A stretch of 60,636 nt of DNA, filler included, from Platydemus manokwari (lineage: Eukaryota): NCBI GenBank assembly GCA_037951405.1. It is 6 parts of 6 records of this genome, joined end to end, with 100 filler letters (N's around TTAATTAATTAA, not from the genome) between each part and the next. Parts side by side here need not be neighbours in the genome. Positions count along the whole stretch, not along the records: positions 1 to 11,605 come from JBBMOY010569996.1; 5 more parts are not named here. One strand, written 5' to 3'. The first letter of the stretch is position 1, and every line of letters begins with the position of its first letter. The position numbers and the translations under genes are program-made. This document shows positions 1 to 49,408 of this stretch, one piece after another. The notes under the pieces are model-generated. The model saw nothing but the letters and a program-made list of their open reading frames with translations. It ran no database searches and was not told the DNA's origin.

Positions 1-200
1 CCATCTTTCTTCTTTACCAATATAAAAGGTGATCCCCATGGTGATGAACTTTCTCTTATTGTTTCATTACTTAACATTTCCTGGACCTGTTTATCTACTT
101 CTCCTTCTAAGGCATATGGCACTCGATATGGTCGCTGTCTGATGGGCGTTGGATCTGTTAATATAATCTTGTGTTTCAATATAGTACATTTCCCTAATGC
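1..200 (-). mobile_element. Ty3/Gypsy LTR-retrotransposon pol fragment (N-terminal part of reverse transcriptase), runs off the window edge
   Basis: Minus-strand translation ALGKCTILKHKIILTDPTPIRQRPYRVPYALEGEVDKQVQEMLSNETIRESSSPWGSPFILVKKKDG matches the Gypsy RT N-terminal pattern (PI.Q.PYR.P...V..ML....I..S.SPW.SP..LV.KKDG). Similarity is lost upstream of ~210. Confidence 0.92.
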
Positions 201-3200
201 AGAAAAATGGAATCCAATAATTGAAAGAATTTATTTTGATTCTGATTAAGTACTTTATTAGGAGTTAAAACTCTTATACATGTCTGAAAATTTTTAATAT
301 ATTAAATTACATTACATTAAATTAAATTACTCCAACATCAGGTAAATAACAACAAGTTAATAAAACTGTAAAAATTTTTAACACATAAATTAATAAAATT
401 TTCATAAAGCAATTAAACGGGATTGATGATATTTTCTAATTTTATGTTTATTCATTTTTGTGTTTCTATTTTTGGGATTTCTACTTAAATTTTAATATTT
501 ATTTCAAGAGTCGCGTACTCAAGTGCAGCAACCGTTCAGAAAAGTAGGAAAAATAATACAAATAAGTGGCAAATTTTATAAAATTACACCTTTGCTTCAT
601 TAATATTTTTAATTTTTCAATTTTAGAAATAAATTAAATGTAGATAAATAAAAATTTAGATAAAAACTGCATGATGACTCAGCTAATCTAAATGTTGGAT
701 CTTAAAGAAAACTGATGTATGAAATTATTTCCGGTATTTTCGATTAACGTAATTAACTCTTCAGTGCTAAAATATTTTCTGTAAAATCACAATAAACAAA
801 ATGTTTTAAGAAACAAACATTTATTAACTTGAAAATCATTATTAATATTTAATAATCTATAATTTTATCGATTGAAGTTTGTGAATTTGTGGGATGTTAA
901 ATATTTTTACAGAATCGTTTTATCATTTAAATTTATTGATGTATGTTATTTTGATTTGTTAACTAAGTACGATCTTTGAAATTATAAATTTTCTTGTTGA
1001 TTATAGTGGATTGAGTTTTATGTTACTTTATTAATCTACTGAATGTAATGTGTTTGAATTTTCTGACACCAGTTGAATATAAGAACTTTTCTTCATTTAT
1101 GTATAATAATTCCGACTTATCTGATGTCGCCCTATCACGGAAAATAAGTAAATAATATATTGTTTTAATAAATACAATTTGAATTCTTAATTCAGTTTTT
1201 TCCTGTTTTTTAATTAAAGTTTATGAAGTGTTTAAAATTAAATTTTACTTAAATATGGAATTTTTGTTCTAATCTTACATTTTTATATTCAGCAAGTGTT
1301 TTATTTTATTTCCGAAATATCAGCTTTTAAATTCGTTCATTGTTTTTATAGCTTGTTACAACAAAGCTGTAATTTTGATTTTAGATTTTGATATTTATCT
1401 TTTGTTGAATGCTAAATCGAATTTTAATTATAATATAAGTTTATTTAGCCAATTGAGTCTCATGAGTAATAGTTTAAATACAATATATTTGTATTATTCG
1501 ATTTTAAATGTCTCTGTGATATTGAATTCTACGGCAAAACTACTCTATTTATAAGGTCAATTACACATTAAACTTTTGATATATTTACTCCACAATGATG
1601 AACAAGTCATGATTAGATTGTTTCGTATTGATGTGTCTTCGTTTATCAAGTCAAAGTGAAATTTTGTTACAAAAACATCCTAAAATTTTGTGATTAGTTC
1701 TGAATCGATTTAATTGGATATTTGGAAATAGTTGATTTTAAATCTAATTTATTAATATCAAATAATTTTTAAAAAATTTCATTGTAATAAAATTGCGTTT
1801 TTTATTGTCACCTTTTTTTACTTCTCAGAGTTTATGATTATGAAAATATAATATCATATTATTTAAAATCGGAAAAATTAATTATACTTATCTCTATACA
1901 TCTTTGTTTAATTTTATTATAGCATTCTTTCTTATCAATTACAATTTTTATGTGAGATTGATTGTTGACTCTTATTTTATTAATTAAACCACTTTATATT
2001 TTTTTAGCATTCAAGTTTATTTCAGTTAAAACGTATGGCTTGTCTTCTAATGATTTGATTTCTAATTTATAGATAAGTCATTTCTCATTCGTAGATTATC
2101 GTATGATTTTATATTTGGTCTTTTTACTAATTGATAATTGAGTTCATCATCAATACATCGACATAATTTATTTAAACTAAAAAGACTCAATGACATATTG
2201 TTGAATATATTTATTCAATCAAGAATAACTTAGACTGATGAAGGAAATATTGAAGTCTCTTATCAAACGTTCAATGTTGGAAACGAAAGTATATCTTCCG
2301 GGTTGTTTAGTAGTATGTAGACTAATCATCAATAATAAAGTGCTGAACATTTAATCTTTGAATTATTGTAACGTAATGACAGGTTAACATAAATCAAAAA
2401 CTATTTGCGAATCTAGCAAATTATATATGGATTCTAACAGAATTGATAGATATTTTAGAAAATATATTTAAATGAACTAATAATCTAATCTTGATATATA
2501 GTATTATGTTATTATTTAAAGTGGATGTTTAAATTACATCTTTCAATTTCTTTGATCTTTTTAATTTTGCTGGATTATTGGATGATACTTTATGCTTCAT
2601 GTCGGTTATCCTTGCTATGACAACATTAGAGGTTTTAAAATAATTTCTATAATAAATTTAAACCAACTATCAGAAAATACGACTAATTTACTAGTGCTGA
2701 CCGTGGTATATAGTCTAATGTTTCTCAATCTTTTTACTCTCGTGGAACATTTTTCAAAGAAGAAAAATTTCACTACATACCTAAAGAAATTTAAAAATTA
2801 AATGAATCTAACGACAAATATTTTATTTCGTGATAGATTTATAATTAAATATAAAAATTAAAAATAAAATACGAAAATATTTCTTTATTTTGATGGATTG
2901 TCACGTTTGGCTATTTTTGTTATTGATTTTAGTCTGACTGCTTTTTTTAAATAAATATTTGGTTGTTTAAACTTACTCATTCTATTGGAATTGACCTCGG
3001 ACCTTTGCCATTTGTTTTTGAATAACACTCAATGAATTCCTGTTTTTCGAGTCTAAAGCTTGCATTCTTTGTTAATGTCCCTGCACATATAACAAGAAAA
3101 TTGCATAAAGTACAATGTATTTAGTATAGTGTTTTCAAACAGTGTTCATTATCAAATAATCACATATTGTTCTTATATAAACTGCTGAGACTCCGGTACA

Positions 3201-4789: not shown

Positions 4790-5490
4790 GTGATTGTAAT
4801 GTCACTACTTGAGGCATATTCTGAATGTAATTGTCTCGGTTATCTGGATTCACAAAGCACATCGAATGCAATGTTGATAACCGAGACTTTGAAAACGGTA
4901 GTACGACCTCCAGTAATCTGTTTATATTAAATAAAAAGTATTGTAAATATAATATTTCTGTTTACTGTGTGATTATTGCATATAGAGTTGCAGATTGGAA
5001 ATAGGAAGCAATTTTTCTTGTTGTATCTTTTCAGTCCTCCATCGACTAAAATTTTAGGTCTTCGACGTTCTCGATTATATTTGGCTCCACCAAAATGGGT
5101 CTCATAAATTTTCACGACTATATTTTTACCTCCGATAATTTTTCTGTGCCTCACTGTGTTCATAAGTGTGGAATCGACAAATTTTGTGCCTTAATAAATT
5201 ATATTAAATTCTTAGTTTTATTTTATTAAATATTATTACCATTACTTAATCGTTGGCTTGCTTACGGAAATCATTTGTTAATACACTTTTGTGTGGCCTC
5301 CGTGCATTCATTACAAACAATTAATATTGAGAAAGTCGAAACGGGACCAGGTCGAATTGTTGAAAATAGCTCCTATTCGAATTCCAATACTTCTTATGCA
5401 TTTTTGGCATCTCCAAATATATAATTTACTTGATTTTGGTGAAATTTTCATTGGATTGCTACATCGACATATTTTGGATATGAGAGCAGA
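4790..5490 (-). mobile_element. Degenerate Merlin / IS1595(ISXO2)-like DDE transposase
   Basis: Minus-strand pieces in the expected order across frameshifts: Zn-finger-like ICRCSNPMKI...YIWRCQKCIRSIGIRIGAIF; IGGKNIVVKIYETHFGGAKYNRERRRPKILVDGGLKR..KNCFL (cf. IGG.G.IVEIDE..F..RKY.RG....W.FGG.ER); TDYWRSYYRFQSLGYQH; FVNPDNRDNYIQN. The first catalytic Asp is mutated; no TIRs recognised. Confidence 0.8.
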
Positions 5491-8187
5491 ATGCTCTTAA
5501 AAGTCTCAGTGGTTGTTATTACTTTATTTTTATAATGTTGAACTTGAAGTAAACGATAATTGGGTTTTGATATTTGTACTTATCATCAGAGTAGATGCCA
5601 TAGTACTATTTTGTTGTACTGTGAGAGTCATGTGAATATTATTTTGATTTAGACATGCGTTTGATACGTTAACATAAACATGTAACATCCAGAGTGAAAT
5701 AGATAGTGCTTGAATATACTTGAATAATTCGGGCTTAAGTCACGGTGATGTTTATCAGTGAAGGAGAATAGATCAAAATTATCCACTTTGGATGTGATGG
5801 AATCCTACTAGCCTGGTGCTAAGTAGTATTTGGTGATAGTTCATGTGAGGTAATTCAGCTAGTATAACTCGGTGAATTACCTGTGTATACTTTAATAGTG
5901 AATAGAATCAGAATAATGATGATTCCACCCATGATCTGACTTTGATCAGTAATTAGGTCGCGTGTTTAACACTGATATAATATGTAATAACAATAGAGCA
6001 ATAAAACGATAAGTCAAAATAATACGTAATACGTTTAATAGAATAAAAATTAACGGATATGTGCTGCAGTATAATTGATAGAAGGAAGTGTTATGCCCTG
6101 AAGAGTTTTGAAACAAACCGACATAAGGACGAAAAATTAAAGATTTTATTTTAAGTAATCCAAACCCTGGGTGCTTTGCAAAGTAACGGCACTAAAGTAC
6201 AAATTCTTCGACTTTATACTTTAGCGTCGGTGTGATGAGATAACAAAACAACCGTTGATTTGAAATAAATTGATATATATTTCTCCGTAAAACTCCAGTC
6301 AGTTTCAATGACTCTTCGGCAAAATTGTATATGTTGATCCAACGGCAAACTCGAAGCCAATAGATCCTAGTGATTTCCCTAATGATGTGGCATACCCTTT
6401 TTGCGAATAATTGTTGAAGTTTGGTATGAGAAACTGTATGCGGTGAAGTGATTCTATCCCCCTATTTATATTTGCCGTTCAACAAGTACTGCATTAGAAA
6501 TAATATTTTAATATTTGAAATCCCTCAATAATTGCAAATATAGGATTGCGTAATATTTATACCTTCTCTTGAAGTATTTATTACAAACATAATTTAATTA
6601 CAATTATGTTTTTTCATTATTATAAATTTTTATAAATAAATTATTTATCCAGAAATGTAAGAAAAATTTTTAAATAAAATAAAATTGCTACAAATGTTAA
6701 CTCATGCAATACAGTTTAGTAGAAACATATTACTTATAAAAATTGTCATAAGCTGACAAATTACGATACATTAGTGTTGATATAATTCAACTAAATAAAA
6801 ATTGGTACATTAATCGATACAGTTTGATTAACATAAAAATTTATACACTATACACCAATATTGTTTATCATAGTAGTTATTGCCAAATCGATTATTATTG
6901 TCAGAACCCCAACCGTTTTAGGTGTTTAATAAAGATAGAACTTGCTCTGGAGTTCAAATTATAAATGTGCAATTTGTAAAAAGTTATTGATTAACAATTA
7001 AAATATAATCTTAAAAGTTTATAATAATCATCACTCTAATCTTTAACTTATCGGGACTCCAGACATAAGGTCGTTGTTGAAAAAACTAAAATTTATTTAA
7101 CGTATTAGTCATGTCGATGCGGTGGCACAAGTCCTCACATCATTTAATGATTTCTATTTTTTTTTTCTTTTTTTACTGGTTGCATTTTCCATGGTTTCCT
7201 GTTCGGTAGCGTCATATATTGGTGCTCTCCTGAGAGTATTTTTTTGGTTTTTCTATTTTTTAGTTTTGAGAAGTTCCGATGAGTTTGCGTAGAGAAGTCC
7301 TAGGTAGTTATCGCATCTTTGTTGGCTTCTTTGGAATGGAGACGGTTGAAGACCATTTAGTTGTTGGCGATCTTTGGCAGGTCGGAGATTGAGTTGATCG
7401 TTCCGATGATAAAATTGCGATTGTTGGTGGTTTTCAGTCAATTCCGATTCCGTGTAGGAATGTAGGACACAATATTCATTGTCCAAGAGACTCCTTTTCG
7501 TCGAGTTGTTTGTTTATTTTCCGATTATTTTGAGCAGTATTTATGGGAAGTCGATTATAAGTTGGTCGTAGCAGGACTTTATTGATTTGTGTTTGGGGGG
7601 ACGAAGTATTCACTATGTTCTGGTTCGCTCATTTTATTGAAAAATATGCTGGTCTTCGGGGTTTTTGTTTAAATGATTTTAGATAATGTTATTGATTTAT
7701 TTGATTATTTGGCGCTTTGCTCTAAAGGTACTGATCCTATGGGAGCTTCAACACCTGGTATTGAGGACCAAGATGTCGGAAAATGAATTTCATATATTTA
7801 ACTGAAGCACAGAGATTTCGTTGACTCTCTGGGCCTAAACAGAATGATATTAGTTTTCTATGATCGTAATTATAACTTGTAATTAATAACAATACTGTGG
7901 GTTAACAAAGATATATTTATGAAAACAACTGACAATTAGTTAGTTAAAAAGATAATAACAAGGTTTGAGCAAATATCTCGTACCTCGCCTCAGCGATTAA
8001 CGAGAAATCCGGTGTCGGATGGAAGATTAAAGATACAGAGAAAATTTTAAATGATGATTAATTATTATTACGCTTATCATATAGTTTAATGATCGTGAAA
8101 TTTATGACTCAATGTGAAAGAATCTAACTCTTACTAATTTTTCGTCCGCTGGCACTGAGTTCGCAAAAAATGTGAAAATAACTTCGG

Positions 8188-10049
8188 CTAGTCCTCTTCC
8201 TCCTCTATTTCTAGGATTTCATCCTCCTCCATTCCAGGACTTCTTCCTTTTCCTCCTTTTCTTTTAACCATTCCTTGCAGTTTTTTATTGTAGCATCTAT
8301 TTCCTGCATTTCTATATGTATTTCCTCATTTCACTTTGGTCCTGTTGCAACTCCTTCATCCTTCCTTGTAAGGCATCCACATTGTCCCACTTGCTTGTTA
8401 TCTCCTTTGCCTTTTCAAACTTTTCCATTTTTTCCTTTATCTCGTCCATCTTTTTCTGCATTTCTCTCCTTTCCTCCTTTGTCTTTCTTTCCCATTCAGA
8501 TTCTTCTCTTCTCATTGCTTTCTCATATTCACAACTCCATCTTAGCAGCTCCTCCAACTCTTCATCATTCCAGCTGCTAATATCGACGTCCATGTCCTCT
8601 ATTCCTATTTCCATGTCTTCCGCCTGCTCTACCAACATTTGCTCCATTCTACTATTACTTGTGCCTGGTTCGTCTTCTGCCTTTGTTTTTTTCTTGGACA
8701 TTTTTCTACGGGGAACTGTTCTTCCCCTAAATGCTGTCGTATCATATGTTCATACGACCTTTTTGCCGCCATTGATTCCTTATCTTTCACCTCTTCATCC
8801 AACGGAATCAATCTCCAAGCTCGTTGCGGCGGCTCCAGCTCTCTTATTATCATTCTTGGTTTAATGGGTGTGGTATCTTTTGCCTTACTCCTTTCGTCCT
8901 CTTCATATTTCTTGACCTTCTCCTTCCAGCGGTTGTCCTGACTGTCATCCTCATGGTCCTTCCATTCTTTTTCAACCGCCTTATATACTGCCTGGACTCC
9001 TGCTTTCGTGTCCAGCAGTTCTCCTTGTCTCATTTTCCTTCCTATGACCCGGTGGTAGATGTCTTGCAACCGATATGTTGTTGCAATTCTCTGCCTATAT
9101 CCTTTTCTCTCCACTCGTTCTTCTTCTGCCACCTTTTGGTTGATTATTGGTGCCCCATCCAGGTCTCGGATGCCCAGCACCTCTTCCAATCTCACTCCTA
9201 TTGCCATCAGCTTTTCCTTCAGCCGATGGCCAATCAAAATCTTTCCTCACCAGATCTCTCTGAGCCTCACTTTGGCCCACTCCTTATCCATCTGGCCTCT
9301 AATCTCATATTCTTCGATGCCCCCTCTATCAACGTGGTATTTCTTTATTTCCGCTCTCGGACTTTTTTCTTCGAATAACGTCGCCCCCTCGTAACTCTAT
9401 TACCGCTACGTGAGATGGAACTCTCCCATAAAATCTTCTGCCGTCTTGACATCGATAAAAATTAGGGCTTCCCGATCTTCTTCTAGGGTCATCTTCCTTC
9501 TAAGGAAACTCAGGCTTCTGTCCAATGCCTGAAAGCCATTATGGAGTTACTGGGTATCTCGGACAGCCACTCCCGTCCTTCCACTATTCTCTGTTCTATC
9601 TCGAAAATGGCCGGGAGGTCCGATACGCTAATTATAGCGCTTCTATAGCTTCCCAATGCGACAATTCTTCCCCTCTGTTCATGTCGCATTCTTAGCCGTA
9701 TTTTTAGGGAGGATAGGGCTTCTATTTCATGGTTGTCAGTCCCTATTCTGACCGTTATTCTCGGGGTTGCTGCATGTATTACTATGCGATGGGTTTCTGC
9801 AGGTCCATGCTGTAGTAACTCCCCTAACTGGAATCTGGTTTGGGTAATGGTATGCACTATTTGAAAAGTGCGATTATTCTGGGTCGGGGCTTTAAGTTTG
9901 TTAGGTATGTCTTCTACCAGCTCATATTTCCTAACCCCTATGTTGTGTGGGGTTGCCTTAAGTATGAACTGTTGCACTGCCCGGTAGAATCGATTTGGGT
10001 AACTTGCTTTCTGGGTTTGTTTGACATCCATTTCTGAAATATAACACAT
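8188..10049 (-). pseudogene. Disrupted intronless ORF of a putative mobile element: unknown N-terminal domain + REX4/ISG20-like DEDDh exonuclease-fold domain (~8956-9465) + acidic/basic coiled-coil C-terminus
   Basis: Joining ORFs 9510-10049, 8629-9237, 8312-8701 and the intervening frames gives ...LIFIDVKTAEDFMG/RVPSHVAVIELRGGDVIRRKK/VPRAEIKKYHVDRGGIEEYEIRGQMDKEWAKVRLREIW*GKILIGHRLKEKLMAIG...IRDL...YRLQDIYHRVIGRKMRQGELLDTKAGVQAVYKAVEKEWKD, collinear with REX4-family motifs (GRILVGH, IRDT, L..L...ILG..VQ, Y..VKKEWE). In-frame TGA at 9247-9249 and several frameshifts; ends ...EEDEILEIEEEED* at 8188. Confidence 0.7.
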
Positions 10050-10388
10050 TAATGTTTATATCAATATGGATTTTGATGAATGACAATGATCGATGACAAT
10101 GCTTACTTTATTTATCGTAGCGACTCCTCCTTGATATTGGTTGATATCGCTATTGGGTCGTCGCCTCAGCTTCAGTTTTTGCTTTGACTTTTATTTTTCC
10201 CCTTATTTTTAATGATTTTAGTATCTTAGTTTGATTTCTATTTGATATATTTTGCTTACCATTACTGTTTATGGGTGCCGTTTTCCTTTTATATTAATTT
10301 TTTATCATAAATATATTATAAATAACATAGATATTGTTTATAAATATTCATATTCAACTATTTCCTATTTACACGTTCTTCTTTTTGC

Positions 10389-11605
10389 TTAGAACTCCGT
10401 CTCCAAGACCCCATTATACGTGGTAATAAAGGGTCTATTTCTTCTTCTCATTCGAAGATAATTTCCTGCCAACATTGTGGCTACCGTCACTGTAACTGCC
10501 AAGATTACTTCTCCTATTATTGTTATTATAGTTTCCAGCGAAAATGCAACGTCTTATGCACTCGTGGTCATCTTTTGATACGCTTTTGTGGTTGTGGTTT
10601 GTTCCTTAATTGTTGTTAATGGTATTGCCCTTGTTGTCACCGGCTCCTTTCCTTGTTTGTATATCATTTTCTTTTCATGATGTATCTCATTATTGAACGT
10701 TACTCCTTCAATTTGTTCATAAAAGTAAACGTCTATTTCTATCTGTGACTGTTCTAATGACACCATTGTCTGTCCTTGTGTACCATTGGTTATTATTACC
10801 TTTGCATTGTTTATATAAACTTGTGCCGTTAAACATTCCATTTTTATCCACCTTATTTCTATCCCTAATTCTATTGATTTTGCGTACACTCTTCCTTCAA
10901 TATCTGGTGTTTGTACTATCACTTCTCTTCCTATTTTTTCCATTGTTATCTGTAATTGGTAAGCTTCCCTGTCTTGGACCTTCCTTATCTTTATCTCATG
11001 ATCATTAGATTTATCTCCTTGTATTTGGTGCTCTATCATTCCCCTATATATTTTTCTCCAACATCTTTCTTTGGTAAGCTGATATGTCGTTTCACTTTTA
11101 GTCGAAAATCCCTTCTTGGCGTGTTTTGATTTCTTACTATGATTACTCCTGGATGGCTTTGTATTATGAATTTTGCGAATTTATCGTCATCCACCATATA
11201 TCTTATAATCGACTGATGACAATTTTGTTCACTTCCTGGTATTATTAATAACAATGCTGATACCGCTAAGATATTCTTGACGCTACTGGCCTTGCCGCTG
11301 CTCTTCTTAATGTGTACATTCTTATTCCTCTTCTCCTGCTAGCTAATATCACTATAATTGCTGCTATCGTCATCACTGCCTTTATCGCCTTCTCACTTTG
11401 CTGATATTCCTGATGTAGTTGATTGCTCTCATTTTTCATCTTTTCTTCCCTGGCTCGAGCAATGAGCACTACTTTGTCCTTATTCTCCTGACATTTCTTC
11501 TTTTCATTAATGTACTTTTCTACTCTCCTTCTCAATCTGTGATTATCTCTCAGCATCCTATAATATTCTAATTCATAATTAGGTTTACTAATTTCCTTGT
11601 TTGGT
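10389..11605 (-). pseudogene. Disrupted intronless env-like membrane-protein ORF (coiled coil, TM, basic loop, internal signal-like segment, beta-rich ectodomain, Thr-rich stalk, TM, short tail); 5' end lost in the gap
   Basis: The frame is open from the gap at 11605 through ORF 11266-11556 (AVMTIAAIIVILASRRR), shifts to KNILAVSALLLIIPGSEQ (ORF 11036-11254), shifts to ORF 10554-11039 (NGT sequon, TTRAIPLTTIKEQTTTTK). Past a single TAA (10554-10556) it continues DVAFSLETIITIIGEVILAVTVTVATMLAGNYLRMRRRNRPFITTYNGVLETEF*. Confidence 0.65.
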
Positions 11606-11705
11606 NNNNNNNNNNNNNNNNNNNNNNNNNNNNNNNNNNNNNNNNNNNNTTAATTAATTAANNNNNNNNNNNNNNNNNNNNNNNNNNNNNNNNNNNNNNN
11701 NNNNN
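11606..11705. other. Artificial scaffold spacer N44-TTAATTAATTAA-N44
   Basis: Exactly 100 nt; the central palindrome at 11650-11661 gives stops in all six frames; identical spacers occur elsewhere in the window. Confidence 0.97.
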
Positions 11706-13700: not shown

Positions 13701-16700
13701 CTTTCTATGAAGATCTGCAACTGCGTCCAATTCCTCCGTTTGACGAGTTCGAATATCTTCAACTTGTTTAATTCTATCTCTTAATTGATTATTTTCATTT
13801 TTCGCAATGGATAATTCCTAAAAAAATCTTGATAATTTTTCTTTAATTTATTTAGGAAAATCCACTTGGCTTAATCTTTCTACATTATCTTGATGATCTT
13901 CGTTTTGAACTCTCAATTGATTAATTAAAGTATCATATTTATCCAATTGTTTCGACATAGTAGCAATTGTTACATCCTTTTTATTCCCAGTTTCTGAGAC
14001 CCCTCAAAGGAAAAGTATTATAAAGGTATTATTACTAAAATTACCATTGACTCTGATTCAATAATATAAGCGTTTAGTTTCCAATGGGACATAAAACCCA
14101 GTACGGAAAATTAAATTTTATTATTACAAATTTACCTCTCTATGCCAAGTTGTATAGTTTTCTAAGCCAAAATAATTTTAGCAATCTCATAATTAGTGAT
14201 TTTATGAAATCTGTCTTTTAAGACACACCGAGAATGTATATTCAAATCCTTGAAATACCATGATTGTCAGTGTTTTAATACAGCGTTTTAATTCAATCAC
14301 AATTGTAAAAATATCCAAAAAAGGGTCTCCTTAATACAATTTTATATAGTTGTTATGATCGTTTTATTATTTTATTGGATTTTTTCTCATTTAATTAAAG
14401 TTAATAAAACAAATGAATTTTAATTATTTTAGTTGTCTTCGTAATAAACTATTATCAGATATTTAATGCACGAGCAAAGAAATCAAGAAATCATCAAATT
14501 CTATATTTTTATTATTTGTGAAAGCTGATTTATTTGTTGATATTTCACAGTTTATGGTGTCGAATAGGAATTAAATAGAATTGTGAATCAAGTTGCTATT
14601 TTAATTACAACCCTGTGATATGATTTTTTGGATTATCAATCGAGTTTGTTAATTACAAACATGTTTAAAAAATCTAATACTACTTATTTTTTATAAAAAT
14701 AATTGTAAAAATTAAGAGAATCTACCAGTTTGCTTCTAATGTTAAAATAAGGCGTCCTCGTTAAATTCCAATTTGACCAACTTTGATCGGATTTTCAAAA
14801 TATCAAATTTTATGATATTTTGAAGCTCTAGTCGATTTAATATTTTATTTCAAACAACTAAAAATTTTCTTGAGTACTTAAATAAAAAAATTCAAAATAT
14901 TTTTGAAGAATAAAATTTTATAAACTATATAGATCTTTGCAATACACTCAACGAATTAAAATTTTTATTTTAGGACCCTTTTTAACTTTGGCTCAAATTA
15001 AACACTTATATAGTATTAATCGAATCCTACGATTTTAATTTCAGCACACAGGATATCTTTAATATCGAAGATCCAATTTTAAGTCATTATAACTCCGATG
15101 TCTAATATACAATAAAAATAATTTGTGGAATATTAAGAGCAAATATATGAAATATATGGATTTTAAGTTATTTAATCTAAGAAAACAAATATAAAGAAAA
15201 TCAGTAAAAAAATCAACTAAATAATTGTAAGTTTATGAATAATTATTATAATAAAGTATCATATTAACAAGTTGATGGACTTTTTAATCCTTAATTTTCA
15301 CTCGTCATAGCACAGAATTTTATAAATTCTATTTCCCATTTGTAATAAACCACAGTATATTGAATTACATTAAAACGGAAGAAAAAATACTGTAAATGCT
15401 GGTCTCAAAACCGTTTTAAATTTAGAATAGCGATGAATTTGGTTGAAAATTATTTTATTATTAAAATACTGTTATAAGAGCTTACAAATCGATTTGTCCC
15501 GAATAAAACATTAATATTATTAGCAACGAATAAGAAAATCGAAAATAACCTTTTGTGTTGACTGATTTCGAAATTGATCTAAATTAAGTTGAATTATAAA
15601 AAATTACAAAATCAAAATTTTACCTCCAATAAAATAATTCTTTTTGATAAGTAATAATCCCTGCTAATGTCACTGCATCGAGCGTGGCCATCATAATTTC
15701 TTGTTCTAAAGCAGTTGACAATGAAACGAGATTAATTGCTTCATTTGTATTCAAATTGAAAAACTTTTACATGGACATTTCAGAATGATAGTGAAAGCAA
15801 TTGAACTCACTTCTAAGACTTCATTTCCATCTAGAATTCCACCAGATGCCCACAGTCTGACGATTTCTTCGGCTTCACAATATCTGTATGTATTTGTTAA
15901 AACAATATACATGCTCCAATAATTTCCAACCCTTTATTTTGAGGATCCAAAGTAGTAAATAGTCCACTGGATGTATCACTAGATAAATTCAGTGATTGAA
16001 CACCATTTTTAACATATTTTTTCAATCCAACCGTGAATTCCACAAATGAGACCCGATCATCATGATCGGTATCTATATTTGTAAAAAGGTTTTTCAAATC
16101 CTTAAAAATCACTCCTTATAACTCATATTTTCGTAATAAAATCCATACTTCTTGGTCTAGATTATTCATTCCTAAATGCATACAAACTTTTTCCAGTTCT
16201 GGAAGTGTTAGATAACCATTTTCGCCGATCTTTAGATCTTTCCATATTTGCTTAATTTGCTCATCATTTCGCTCAGTCACTTTTTGAATCTTTTTCTTTC
16301 TCGGAGAAACAGTTGGTTTTTCAGTTACTAAGAACAAGTTAACATGCAAATAAAAGTTTTTGTTGAAATTATATTTCAATAACCATTAGCATTTTCTGTA
16401 GTTGGAGGAGTCACAATTTCTTCTTCAACTTTCGCAATCTCCGATGAATCGTGATGAACATCAGCTTTTTGTTTGATTAAGCCCTTACGTGGTTTAGCAG
16501 CAAGCACATCCTTTTTTTCACTGGGAACTATTGGCTTTTCTTTGACTTCCTTAGGATCTGGGGAATCAATATCGGAATCTTCAGTGTAATTATGCTGTAA
16601 CTTGCTTTTCGGTAAGTTGCTAGCTCCACCGGGTCGCAAATTCTCGATAATTATAAGAAAATAATGTTTAAATAATAAATAATTTTTACCTCTAAAAAAT

Positions 16701-32000: not shown

Positions 32001-32820
32001 TATTTATCTTGACTTCATACAGATAAAAATGTTTATGAAATATATTGAAATAATACGACAAATACAATGATAAGTACAGTGACACCAATATACATATTTT
32101 TAAAAATATTTTAACATTATTTCAAAAAGCCATATGCGAATAAATAATAATCCAGTGCAATATATCTCGAGCCGAATTATTCTGATCATGTGCTTTATGC
32201 ATATATGCCTAGTGTTCACTGGAAGACAAAAGGTACGTTTCATTTTGTAACACCATATTTTAAAATCAGTAATATCTTTTATGTAACGCTCTTGTAAATT
32301 AATACTACTCCAATTAGATAGTGTGCTGTATTGGAATTCCGGGGAAAATTTTTAAAAAATTGTATCTCGATTTATCATTGCATTTGTTGTATTATTTCAA
32401 TATATTTTCATAATAACTTCAGTGAGTGGAAAATATTTATTTGGGTGTAGCCTGTAATACGATAATACTACAAGCACTAAATCGATGATTCTGATTAAAT
32501 CTTTTGTAAAAATAACAAACTTATCTATTGGATAATTTACAAAATGATGTACAATATAGAGGATTTCAACAAACACTAATTAGTTTTTCCTAATAACCCA
32601 AAAATATTTAATACATCATAAGCAACACAGGTAAAAATATCCCCTTAATAAGTGTATTAATGTGTTTAAAAACCCGAGTTTCTGGGAAAATAAATTTCAG
32701 ATTTCAGGATAGTTTCATGTCAAAAATTTAATGTTAAATTTGTTAGTTAGAGGCAAACATTTTCTTTCAAATTAAAGAATCATAATTTTATACTTTCAAT
32801 AAAATTATCAATAATATAGA

Positions 32821-35459
32821 ATGGCAAATCAATTTAATAATTTAAAAACTGGAAAGTCTGATAGAAAACTTGTGAGATTTTCTGATTTAAATTGTAACAA
32901 CTATCAAACCGAAGTGTCGTCGAAAAGAAAGAGTTCAATAACTAGTCACAGAGCAGTAGGGAAAAGAATAACTAGCCTAAAGCAAAAATGTCCTTCAGGT
33001 GGACCTCTGACAACGTGGGAAATTGCCAAGTAAGCTTTCGATAACTTTTAAAAATAATTTATTTGATTCAAATAGATATCGACAGTCGAAATTTGAAATA
33101 ATTTTAAAAGAAATGCTCTCTAAAGGTTATCATAGATCGTTCTCAACACTATTCAACATCAATCAAGAGCGAGAAAGAAAACGCCTAGTTGAAGGACCAG
33201 ATTCCACAAGATGGAAATTAAAATCACTACAATTTCATTCTAAACTTGATCAGATCAAAGAATATCTTTGTTTAATTGAGGATTCTCAAAGGAAAGAAGA
33301 TTATCCCACTTTGTTGACATCCACTGCATTTCTGATTCGAACTTTCGGTGAATTTCCCGAAGATAACTGGATAGTACAGCAATTTGTCGCAACTGAACTT
33401 GAATCTAGTTCGAATGTAAAGTATGATTCTGGATATATGAAGGCCTTAGCAAACTTGACGGCTGGTATTAATGCAGAGAAGAGCTGTTAAACATTATAGA
33501 TATTTCATTAAGTAATTAAGATAACTTTTTGTTTTAGATGATTACAACTTGGCTGCTGAACATTTATCCAGGGTCTTTTCCATGGCATATTCACAAAATT
33601 GGCTTGACTCTGAGGGGCAGCCAATGCTAAAAGTCTGCAGTGAACACCTTTGTCTAGTTTATTTGCATCTATCCTGTGATGTCGCGAATTCGAAGCCAAC
33701 ACAGATGCTAGCATATTTAAAACAGGCTCATGAAATAAGCAAAGAAGGTAATTATTAGCATTTTATCATTTCTTAATAATCATTTTTAAATCTCTATTAA
33801 TATTGGTAATGTTCTGTTAGAATCTAACCATTTTGACCCTTAGTAAATATAATGAATACGAAATTCCAAAAAATAAAAATAATTCCTGAGTTATTTTATA
33901 TTCAGCATATTTAACGAGAGTTAAATAGCTTATATTTTTATTATTTAATAACTCTTTGTCCGGATAAAAATTAAAAATGATAATTTTAATTAAGTATTTA
34001 ACTTCATATGCTTCCCTACAATATTCCTTTTTATTTTGTATCTTTCTCATTTAATTTTAAATTACAATTGCATATTGTTTTTCGATTTCTTTGAAACTAT
34101 TACCTGTATGTTTTCCAGCTCTAAACAGCCATATGTGCCATTGTAGTAGTATTTGACTCATTACAGTGCTAGTTGTGGTGCTCCATTAATCAAATATTTT
34201 GGACAAAATTTTCGTTTCAATTTCTGTAACAGAAATTAAAGTGTATTTTATTTATATATTATTTATCGACCTGTGATTCTCTGAATTCTTCTCTTTGTTG
34301 CCTTGTTTTGGTATTTCTTTCCACATATATGTCTTCGTGACTTTGTTGTAGATCTGGCTTTGTTTCTATGGACCCTTGTATAAGGACAAATCAAAATTAT
34401 TTTTTAAATATAGGTCGGGAAAAATTATTTTTCAAAATATAAAAATATTGCGTTTTTATTGTTTGGATATAATTAATTATTTATTTTATTATAATAATTT
34501 TTAGTGCTATAAATCAGTATCTCACTTGATGAGTTATTCGTAATAATTATTAACAAATTTGTGAAAATACATCCCAAGTAAGATTATAATTTCTCGGTCG
34601 GAGTGATTGCGTTTCCACTGAATTTGTTGTGCCATATACATTTATTTATTAAAATTTTCTATGAAATATATATTAATTTTTTATTATTTATTTTTATTTA
34701 CTTATTTTATTCTCCTTTAAAATTTTTCAAAGTTTAGCGGGTCTCAAAACCGTTGAAGCGACATGTTGCCTAGAAATGGGGAGAGTTTTTGAAAAATTAA
34801 AAAATATCGATATGGCTATAGCAGTACTTTGATATTCCATAGTTTATTTTGGATATGTCTTTCATTTCAGTATTATCGAGGACTTTTCGAGGTTACTCAC
34901 AGTATAAATGACCAATACAAACTAGGACTAGCAAATGAGGCCCTTGCTAGATGTTATGAAAAGTTGCTATATATGCATCTTGTAACTAAATTTTATCATT
35001 CAATTATTCAGACAAAATAATAGATTGGAAGCCACGAGATATATGGAAAAATTTGTTTTAATAGCCGAGAGATCATGCGACTGGAATGAATATGCACGAG
35101 CTTGTAGAGTTGTGGGAGAATTGTATAATCGATTCGAAGATTACGATAAGGCAAAGATAGCTTTTGCAAACTCTTATCAGGTTACATATTGTTTAAAGGT
35201 TTGGCATTTTTGAATGATGAATAGTTTCATTGCATATATTTACTAGACTCCAAACGAATTTAATCAATCTAAATTGCTCAATGGGGTAGCTGTAGGCAAC
35301 AAGGCTAATAAGCAAGTTGCAAACCATATTGTAACGAATACTAGGGAACCTGTTACGAAACTCATGAATTTTCGTGCAGATACTTTGGATAATACTTCCG
35401 ATATGTTTATGGATGTTATTACTGAAACCAACGGTAATTTAATTTCATTAAATATTTAA
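32821..35459 (+). CDS. TTC29: Tetratricopeptide repeat protein 29
   Basis: Exons 32821-33029, 33076-33485, 33538-33747, 34738-34823, 34871-34962, 35012-35180, 35247-35459 are all GT-AG and phase-consistent. Motifs EMLSKGYHRSFSTLF, EDNWI.QQF, AAEHL....W.DSEG, AHEISKE match TTC29. The last exon may splice on at 35433. Confidence 0.9.
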
Positions 35460-46500: not shown

Positions 46501-49408
46501 ATAAATTAATAAGTCTTTGTTCTGAAATTACTTTTACTGGTGAATTTCATTTGTCAACGCACGAGAATTGGTTTAAACTTGAAATTCATTGGTAGCATTA
46601 ATTTAACGATCCAAAAAACGTCCATATTAACAGATTTACAAGAACTCAATCTTGACAGTTACATCATCGTTTGGTATTGAGCAATTAATGAAATTGATCT
46701 TTTAAACCTGAACATTGCCGCCTTTAAAAATTACCAAGCAAATCATAGATTCACACCAATTCTTAATTTTTTTTATCAACCTATTATCAATCAAAGAATA
46801 AATTCAAAGAGAAAAAATAACAGGTTTTTCAAGATTAAAGTGCAAATTATAATGAGATAATCAAATAATCATTTCAATACTGTTGAAAGCCACAGAGAAA
46901 CGTCTTATTTAATATTTCAAATGTCATCATTTATAAAACCTTTTCCGACAATCACTTGTCTCCATAGAATTTGAAATATGGGCTGGATCTAACTAAGTTC
47001 CAGAAGACTCAAATTCAAATTTAAGTTTCTTAACAATGCATTTTCGTTTCAATAAATGTCATTAACAGTGTCTGAAGATTTCATTATAGAAACATTCGTA
47101 CCTATTTTATTAAAATCCATTATCTCTTAATTTATGACAAAGCGTTTAATAAGTACAACATGTAAGAGAAAAGTAGCTTATGGGTTATTTTGAAGATTAG
47201 TCACTTCCAATTTGTTTCTAACTGTCTATATTTGGTCAATACTAAATAGTTTATTTAACAATTTTCCACAAAAAATTTATATTATTTTTATAAAATTTTC
47301 CGTTACTGATATTTGAAAGTAGATAATAATTGATGTTTAAAGATACCAAATTGGGTTATGTTGTTCTTTATGAAGATATCGATAAAAACAATCGATTTAA
47401 GGGTGGATATGTTTTCCTTTGCTGGAATTATTTAAAGTTTGACTAATTAGGGTAATATTGTATTATTATGCAATAATGACATCATTTTATTTGGTTCTAT
47501 AAATATAAAAATCTTTTTTAAACAATCTTTCCGATATGTGATTGGTAAAAATAAATGAAATCGTAATTGTAAAAATCAACATTGTAAAAGAAATTAATTT
47601 AAGAAAATATGATTGATTTATTGATAATCTTAATAAGTGAAGATGTTAACACGGATGGAAAAAGAATCAGATTTACTTTTTATATTGAATGGAAAGATGA
47701 AATACGAGATTTAATTTTTTCTGAAAATAATTGATATTGGTATATAAGATTGATAAACAAATCTAGATTTTACTAATTGAATGATGATGCTTGTGATGTT
47801 CCACACAAAAATTATAACCGGAATAAACCATTGCATAAAGATTAAATCGATTTCTTAATGAAAACAATAAATCCAATATGCTACCAATCAACATATCGGC
47901 ACAATCATAATAAATTATTATTTCTCTGCCAAGACTAACAATTTAACATTATGTAAAAATAATATTGAAATTTTGAGCTAAAGTTAAGAAAAGGATTCTT
48001 AAAATAAAAATTTTAATTTATTGAGTGCATTGCAAAAATTTATATGGTTTATTTAATTATATTCTTCAAAAACATTTCGAATTTTTTTATTTAAGTACTT
48101 AAGAAGAATTTTAGTTGTTTATAATCAAATATTAAATACACAAGAGTTTTGAAATTAATAATTTGAAAAACGGGTCAAAGTAGATCGAATTGCAATTTAT
48201 TGAAAATTAGTGAAGGTCACAATTTTGAACATTAGAAGCAAATTGAGAGATACTATCAATATTTACAATTATTTTATAAAAATAAGCAATGATATTATTA
48301 AACATTTGTGTAATCAACTAACTCGATTTATAATTATAAAAATTTTAAAAACTAAAATGATCATATAGATCTGTTGGGACTAGAATACGAACTTGGTTTG
48401 AAAATATGTTTTGTCCCTATTCGGTATTCTAAAAAGTGAGATATTAATTGAAATATATGAATAAATCAAACATTGCAATTATATATAAATTTAAGTGATA
48501 AAATTATATGATGCGCGCAAATTAATTATTATGAAAGTAGGTCAAACGACCCTTTTACTTAAATTAAGCCAATTTTTGATTAAGTTATTTTTAAATTTGA
48601 ACTTTTCGTTGTGTTTGTTTAAATAAACTAGTGAATATTTAATATTTGCCATTATATATTCTTTTCGTTTTTTCTTCATTCAATTCGCGTAATTCTTGGT
48701 AAATATTTAAGAGATAAACATAAATAGTATGAATAATATTTAATTCATTTATTGAACAAATATAGCAACTCGTAAAAGTTAAGCGGGATATTGTTTTGTA
48801 ATTTATATAATTGATTTTGAGATCGATACAAAAATTTTATGGAATATTTGGAATATTATTCTTTAATATAATTTATTTTAATTTAATATAAGTATTGGAT
48901 TATTATTTCTTCAATGGTAAATATGTGTATAATAAGTGTTATTCGTTGTAAAAATAATTTTCATTTTAATTATATTCTTTTGAGTTTAAAAATCCTTTTG
49001 ATTTTCAGTACAAATGATTCTTTTGATTATCATAAATTATTTATCATTTGGTTAAGAACGAAAATGAAACAATTGTTTTAATTTGATTTATCATTTAATT
49101 TCCCATATTTTCCCCAGCAAACCAATCTGAAAGTGGAAGGAATATTCATTTACAAAATCAGCAGACATTCACCGGCCTATAAAAACGGGAAAATGAAACC
49201 CGGTGACAAGATTCTCGCTATTAACAATTATACCGTTAATGAACTCAGTTTTCAAGAGTAAGAACATTGTGGAACTGTTTTTGTTTAATCAGATCGATTT
49301 TATATTAGATGTTTAATGTTGATAACAAGATCAGTAACGTCAGTGAAATTGTTGATTGAAAAATCCGATCTGAGAACGACTCTCGGCATAATGTCAATAT
49401 ATCAATGA
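40521..49408 (+). CDS. RADIL: Ras-associating and dilute domain-containing protein, 3' part (Dilute domain, Ser-rich linker, C-terminal PDZ); 5' exons absent
   Basis: Exons 40521-40684, 41583-41730, 42283-42438, 42492-42667, 42769-43461, 49118-49257, 49309-49408 are phase-consistent. FNWNKGIQVSAQLEKFENW...LISTRAVMLKQMNWKMIRQNF = RADIL-type Dilute domain; YGITLADGT|QTNLKVEGIFIYKISRHSPAYKNGKMKPGDKILAIN...VKLLIEKSDLRT = RADIL-type terminal PDZ. Confidence 0.88.
43488..43523. repeat. (TTA)n microsatellite at the start of the long RADIL intron
   Basis: Direct reading; explains the spurious poly-Tyr tail of ORF 42754-43524. Confidence 0.95.
47971..48328 (-). repeat. Dispersed AT-rich repeat, copy 2 (in the RADIL intron)
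   Basis: Reverse complement is collinear with 14637-14998. Confidence 0.85.

Follow-up and report, generated by a model that had tools for sequence, protein, structure and literature searches.

Results

A broken two-domain gene on the minus strand

The window, the whole stretch of DNA that was analysed, comprises 60,636 nucleotides from Platydemus manokwari. Most of it is AT-rich (20-33% GC), and the block at 8000-11605 shows higher GC, a strong strand skew and ORFs on the minus strand. In this block, we find a two-domain gene on the minus strand, which reaches from about 10031 down to 8629. The N-terminal domain, a 173-aa ORF with an IPNKLK motif (9510..10031), is followed by an ISG20/REX4-like DEDDh fold without catalytic residues (8947..9513). 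A charged C-terminal tail (8629..8946) comes last; it is mostly of low confidence in the model and shares a W.LIPLD motif with the relative P0024. A sequence-only reading of this DNA had placed an exonuclease domain at 8956..9465. The nuclease-fold domain is real, but the gene is about twice as long, and its N-terminal domain had been missed.

The window copy is broken in at least four places. In the nuclease-fold frame, translation reveals an in-frame TGA at 9249-9247 on the minus strand, exactly where it had been placed before. A frameshift pair is present as well, with a best placement that differs somewhat from the proposed ~9425 and ~9365. When 801 alternative readings, each with X at its breaks, are compared, the pair at ~9408/9397 scores best (147.1 bits), ahead of 9425/9365 (140.9 bits) and the unshifted frame (136.7 bits). 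The advantage of about 6 bits over 9425/9365 suggests, as a modest preference, a compensating pair that encloses a short out-of-frame stretch at approximately 9397..9408. A further break falls somewhere within 9590-9510, between the N-terminal part and the nuclease fold. The genomic copy itself would not give a full-length protein.

Upstream of the gene, a broken ORF (10390..11605, minus strand) runs into the gap. Its hydropathy scan indicates a hydrophobic segment at ~11397, then a Thr-rich stalk and, at ~10529, a transmembrane segment; the ORF that precedes the gene in related loci has the same layout. We found no significant sequence match between this ORF and the related-locus ORFs, and no homologs of it among longer proteins. 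The catalytically dead gene behind it is the only family gene in the window. On the downstream side, a small acidic coiled-coil-like ORF (8312..8749, minus strand) lies within the repeated block and matches no Pfam family at the cut-off.

In one public run, which may come from the source sample, 2236 contigs match 5000-11605, most of them less than 95% alike. The summed contig depth is 335-1196 over 8094-11605 and 37-38 over 7210-7651, and a repeat on the 3' side (7652..8093, ends approximate) reaches a far higher depth of about 10,000; this repeat is possibly an LTR. The block is dispersed repeated DNA, and the depth gives no copy number. Within the window, there is no second copy of the 3' repeat that would make a paired LTR. 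The stretch 6900-7780 matches no gag family, and a two-hairpin motif at ~8010-7975 has a weak likeness to the 3' motifs of L009 and L011 (z -1.9), a motif that is absent from L013. No linked pol is seen upstream of the gene, where the sequence stops at the gap from 11606.

At the far end of the same record, window 1-182 encodes the start of a Ty3/Gypsy reverse transcriptase on the minus strand, the strand of the gene, which is 58% identical to the pol of L017 over 60 aa. This fragment is separate from the gene, 8 kb downstream and on the wrong side for its pol. Since the fragment is unlinked and the copy's own pol is not seen, we infer the Gypsy assignment of the window copy from its relatives.

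The nuclease-fold domain groups with ISG20 and REX4

Searching 177,635 PDB sequences with the window frame (X at stops) gave only weak matches to ISG20L2 (E 0.014) and ISG20 (E 0.16). An exhaustive search of 1.84 billion proteins with the same frame identified 39 relatives at E<=1e-3. RNase_T is matched by 18 of the 32 relatives scanned, 14 of them above the Pfam cut-off, and was not found by a direct Pfam scan of the window protein. A word-indexed homolog search with the window protein returned no match, the search with alignment A2 returned eight proteins (one new), and the ESM Atlas gave only leads below 0.9 for the C-terminal half. No relatives were detected in viral contigs, prokaryotic genomes or phages.

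The sequence-only reading had recognized a REX4/ISG20-like DEDDh domain by eye and had named a profile match and a structural superposition as the ways to check it. Both bear it out. Against a profile built from 25 catalytically complete relatives, the window domain reaches 99.5 bits and the best of 1000 shuffles 6.1. A 41-row family profile from which the window is excluded finds ISG20L2 (1.9e-27), ISG20 (6.6e-15) and SDN1 (2e-12). The AlphaFold model of the domain, built on a 39-row alignment with complete relatives among the rows, has a mean pLDDT of 77. Its best structural match is ISG20 (Z 17.3, rmsd 2.4, 150 aligned), and Foldseek matches it to ISG20L2 (E 7e-8). The domain is thus a member of the DEDDh/ISG20-REX4 structural family, with a predicted DnaQ-like fold nearest to ISG20 and ISG20L2.

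Catalytic positions fall into two states

The motifs on the minus strand are as previously read. At ExoI (9445..9453), D-V-K replaces D-x-E: the Asp codon GAT at 9453 is kept, and AAG at 9447 places a Lys at the Glu position. At the ExoII site GHRLKEK (9211..9231), the position of the acidic Asp (or Glu) is a Lys, encoded by AAG at 9213. The ExoIII site (9004..9024) reads GELLDTK from 9024, which contains the LLDTK segment noted before; the general-base His is absent and the Asp column aligns to Thr. The alignment here is uncertain by one residue, so that the last Asp could be retained, and the His is absent under both alignments. Four of the five catalytic positions have changed, and the five sites read D,K,K,G,T. 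Having lost the ExoI Glu, the ExoII Asp/Glu and the ExoIII His, the domain would not be expected from its sequence to work as an active DEDDh enzyme.

Comparison with the relatives reveals that this state is shared. P0041, an unbroken relative of 564 aa and the nearest full-length one, carries D,K,K,G,N in the five sites and hence does not retain D-E-D-H-D, the outcome that would have pointed to decay after insertion. P0041 and P0035 have the same Glu-to-Lys and Asp-to-Lys changes as the window, and GH.LK.K is found in P0022, P0024 and P0040. As the changes match those of relatives with unbroken frames, the catalytic loss is older than the decay of the window copy. Our findings support the earlier proposal of an element-encoded pseudo-nuclease rather than random decay: P0041 is unbroken with nearly the same states, and relatives sit on Ty3/Gypsy elements.

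The 52 family rows split in two: 33 retain every catalytic residue that they cover, 31 of them with all five and two as partial rows, and the remaining 19, among them the window, retain one or none. No row is intermediate. This table leaves out cluster duplicates (P0014, P0042, P0043) and loci that are duplicates or partial (L001, L002, L003, L005, L006, L009, L012, L016). The catalytically complete paralogs had been absent from the sequence-only reading. All 33 have His at ExoIII, not Tyr, and their ExoII residue is often Glu. In the dead group, several non-catalytic columns are kept: P (16/16), R (16/16), D (16/17), G (18/19), R (18/19), Y (17/17) and W (17/18). Because the two groups are defined on the catalytic columns, what is informative is the absence of intermediates and the survival of the other columns.

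Both domains are unbroken in seven of the 16 dead database proteins and in 18 of the 24 complete ones, and the dead genes L015a and L017a have both domains unbroken at the DNA level. The ExoI Glu column holds Lys or Arg in 8 of 13 dead rows. Dead domains carry a net charge of +1.9 per 100 aa (n=14) and complete ones 0.0 (n=32), a slight shift that the domain in the window, at 0.0, does not show.

A predicted double-stranded beta-helix precedes the nuclease fold

The nuclease fold of the relatives is preceded by about 170 residues. Their counterpart in the window is the ORF 10031-9513, which scores 47.2 bits on the family profile versus 5.1 for the best of 500 shuffles. We examined the fold in the model of P0041, in which the N-terminal domain is predicted with high confidence. 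Residues 25-176 match the prolyl hydroxylase 2jij (Z 9.7, rmsd 3.1, 139 aligned), the cupin 1yhf (Z 9.6), ALKBH7 (Z 9.2) and ALKBH6 (Z 9.1), and the domain also matches the cupin 6b8w (E 1.7e-5). The scores are tied, and cupin and 2OG-oxygenase are therefore not separable. The domain is predicted to be a double-stranded beta-helix, cupin- or 2OG-oxygenase-like, as modeled in P0041 and not in the window ORF. Against a viral structure library, the same domain finds giant-virus exonucleases, 2OG oxygenases and plant-virus replicases.

Sequence searches with the N-terminal domain gave no Pfam match, and its profile found no PDB sequence; the ESM Atlas, where its model is poor, gave no match. The motif HxD...H is the metal triad of 2OG-Fe(II) oxygenases, and it is not evident by eye in the N-domain alignments. 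The columns are poorly conserved, with one near-invariant His that is absent in P0006 and P0027.

Phylogeny and selection

Trees were built with L018 and L019 as outgroup, leaving out the short P0022, P0024, P0037 and P0040. With all columns, the 16 dead rows form one clade (93/97). Without the catalytic columns, the dead rows need two to three changes, and the window falls in a starred five-row clade with P0002, P0041, P0004 and P0035 (96/91). The data do not reject a topology with a single dead clade (p-AU 0.44). All three results are limited by long branches; the dead members have the longer branches and evolve faster.

The dead pair L015a/L017a is 50% identical over 372 codons in open frames, with pS 0.74 and pN 0.31. 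Its pN/pS is 0.41 (0.35-0.48), versus 0.44 for the complete paralog pair (pS 0.71, pN 0.31); pS is near saturation in this comparison, so that no reliable dN/dS follows. On this one pair, the codon comparison indicates purifying selection on the dead paralog.

The relatives are carried by Ty3/Gypsy elements

A metagenome scan yielded 19 loci, of which 17 are family loci; these come from two assemblies that have near-identical contigs in common and may be one source. The pol of L015 and L017 has the order PR-RT-RH-IN and matches Ty3-G Gag-Pol best in the PDB (E 2e-118). In a single ORF (L015 3-7106, L017 1-6660), pol runs on past integrase into another retropepsin, ankyrin repeats and an ectodomain anchored in the membrane, which has two transmembrane segments and belongs to no known family. 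No F-type or gB-type fusogen family of errantivirus-type env was found in Pfam for the window or locus ORFs. By these coding sequences, L015 and L017 are identified as Ty3/Gypsy LTR retrotransposons.

In L015/L016 and L017, two family genes stand in tandem behind the pol ORF, with the dead one ahead of the complete one. Three of the 17 loci have this arrangement, and they represent two distinct elements that are 73% identical in pol. The other 14 have one gene, complete wherever covered. In L003, L005 and L006, the complete gene comes straight after the membrane ORF, and no dead copy separates the two.

We also notice several minor features of these loci. Short tandem duplications of ~60-100 bp lie between the accessory genes (L015 8767-8958 and 10577-10701; L017 8353-8496). 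A third accessory ORF at L015 10906-11517 has no Pfam match; by eye, its end seems ubiquitin-like. In the interval from the membrane ORF to the nuclease gene, L013 carries two duplicated small coiled-coil ORFs with an MSPIMPD motif (1773-2204, 2669-3058). Near the 3' end, L009 (2780-2860) and L011 (3140-3220) have two adjacent hairpins, behind which come a C-run and GGAGAAATGT that may mark the start of an LTR.

Discussion

Relation to known systems

The window family resembles the DEDDh exonucleases ISG20, ISG20L2 and REX4 (RNase_T, PF00929) in fold and sequence. In contrast to them, the window branch lacks the catalytic residues, and the family has a predicted beta-helix fusion and is carried by mobile elements. 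Few accessory nucleases of LTR retrotransposons are known and their function is open (PMC5408684, in part). Among them, ORF3 of the rotifer elements Juno and Vesta is likewise an accessory DEDD exonuclease downstream of pol in Gypsy-like LTR elements, but it is RNase D-like and DEDDy with invariant residues intact, whereas the window family is ISG20-like DEDDh, two-domain and includes dead paralogs (PMC5408684, in part). KolobokD elements also encode a DEDDh exonuclease; they are DNA transposons, and their nuclease resembles exuperantia, TREX and ERI1 rather than ISG20 (PMC9587614, in part). Orchid Gypsy elements carry an AlkB-type 2-ODD ORF, similarly an accessory ORF of 2OG-oxygenase fold. 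The orchid ORF is described as an active m6A demethylase, whereas in the window family cupin and 2OG folds are not separated, no metal motif is evident and the domain is fused to a nuclease fold (PMC9289625, in part). The giant Burro Gypsy elements of planarians have ankyrin repeats in the polyprotein and accessory ORFs, as in L015 and L017. Compared by description only, Burro differs in having env between gag and pol, and the available part of its description lists no DEDD gene (PMC6431247).

In the literature covered, which includes PMC6338049 but not Repbase or Dfam, we found no Gypsy element described with an accessory gene of ISG20 type or with a dead DEDDh one; the accessible portion of PMC13524379 makes no mention of an exonuclease. 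An accessory nuclease-fold gene on an LTR retrotransposon is a known sort; one that is ISG20-like, carries a predicted beta-helix and comes in dead/active pairs appears to be new against that literature. The family brings in a nuclease of another type, a predicted domain fusion that is unusual, and naturally occurring pairs of dead and active paralogs within a single element. With these pairs, it could be tested directly whether catalysis is needed by such genes. None of the dead members is recognized by Pfam, so that standard annotation would overlook them.

A proposed non-catalytic role

We consider it reasonably probable that the window holds a decayed two-domain accessory gene, likely of a Ty3/Gypsy element, whose ISG20-like domain was inherited in a dead state; the product likely binds the RNA or cDNA ends of the element but does not cleave them. 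The domain lacks four of five catalytic residues, as do its nearest unbroken relatives, and in this proposal it would have lost them after duplication of the gene on the element. The dead protein would act as a non-catalytic accessory factor that shields or chaperones element RNA or cDNA ends. The narrower claim that it binds nucleic acid and protects element RNA in this way may hold, at slightly below even chances. A non-catalytic binding role is suggested by the fold kept under selection, by Lys/Arg at the ExoI Glu column and by precedent. Direct evidence for binding is slim: the dead domains are little more basic than the complete ones, and the domain in the window not at all. Exuperantia has a dead DEDD domain that binds RNA (PMC5597691, in part), and Maelstrom and EXD1 are RNA-binding DEDD folds that have lost catalysis (PMC5408684, in part). 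These are host genes from other DEDD branches and are not element-borne. The Exuperantia structure 5l80 matches the window model at Z 10.0.

The dead protein might instead be a partner or regulator of its complete paralog, as a heterodimer or dominant-negative, in the manner of enzyme/pseudo-enzyme pairs. The tandem order with the dead gene first in L015/L016 and L017 fits such a role, and both members of the L015 cluster also occur on ENA contigs (longest 10,505 for each). The single dead gene in the window and the complete genes without a dead neighbor in L003, L005 and L006 speak against it, and we hold a partnership to be rather unlikely. We are more doubtful that the protein is a decoy or antagonist that binds host silencing or restriction factors in place of element RNA. 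Host TREX1 and PML provide catalysis-independent DEDDh roles in retroelement conflict (PMC10123124, in part), and the faster evolution of dead members on longer branches would fit a decoy; yet the overall constraint on the dead paralog equals that on the complete one, and positive selection is not seen.

It is improbable, in our judgment, that the N-terminal beta-helix does the work and that the nuclease fold survives only as structural support. In favor of this reading, the N-terminal domain is predicted confidently in P0041, and most of the positions that dead members conserve (P-R, D, GIRD, W-x-D) are specific to the family, with other residues in the cellular REX4-like protein L018; but the poor conservation of the N-terminal columns, the loss of the near-invariant His in P0006 and P0027 and the lack of a metal motif by eye argue the other way. 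Least credible of all, and very improbable, is that an ordinary active exonuclease gene decayed after insertion and gained the substitutions in this way. The frameshift pair, the further break and the TGA do mark the window copy as decayed, but the Lys states shared with P0041 and P0035, the GH.LK.K of P0022, P0024 and P0040 and the complete lack of intermediate catalytic states among the 52 rows contradict this explanation.

Returning to the non-catalytic accessory factor, we can speculate on its origin, with little confidence. A Gypsy lineage so far undescribed may have taken up a fusion of an ISG20-type nuclease with an AlkB/cupin-like domain and duplicated it into an active enzyme and a pseudo-enzyme RNA module. 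The beta-helix would then read a modified base or metabolite, the active copy would degrade host or small RNAs, and the dead copy would shield element RNA. If such a two-part module exists, a retroelement would have its own equivalent of the immune evasion by viral ExoN.

Other features of the window

The list of repeats is dominated by artefacts, the 100-base gaps of TTAATTAATTAA filler at 11606-11705, 21295, 30177, 39935 and 51599. In repeated DNA, a short ORF at 4927-5190 (minus strand) has no Pfam match and resembles a piece of an ISXO2/Merlin transposase. A dispersed repeat occurs in inverted copies at 14623-14997 and 47972-48343 (77% identical), and an inverted repeat at 32033-32413, with arms 244 bp apart, is MITE-like. 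At 33011-33487 on the plus strand lies a TTC29-like host exon (E 2e-10).
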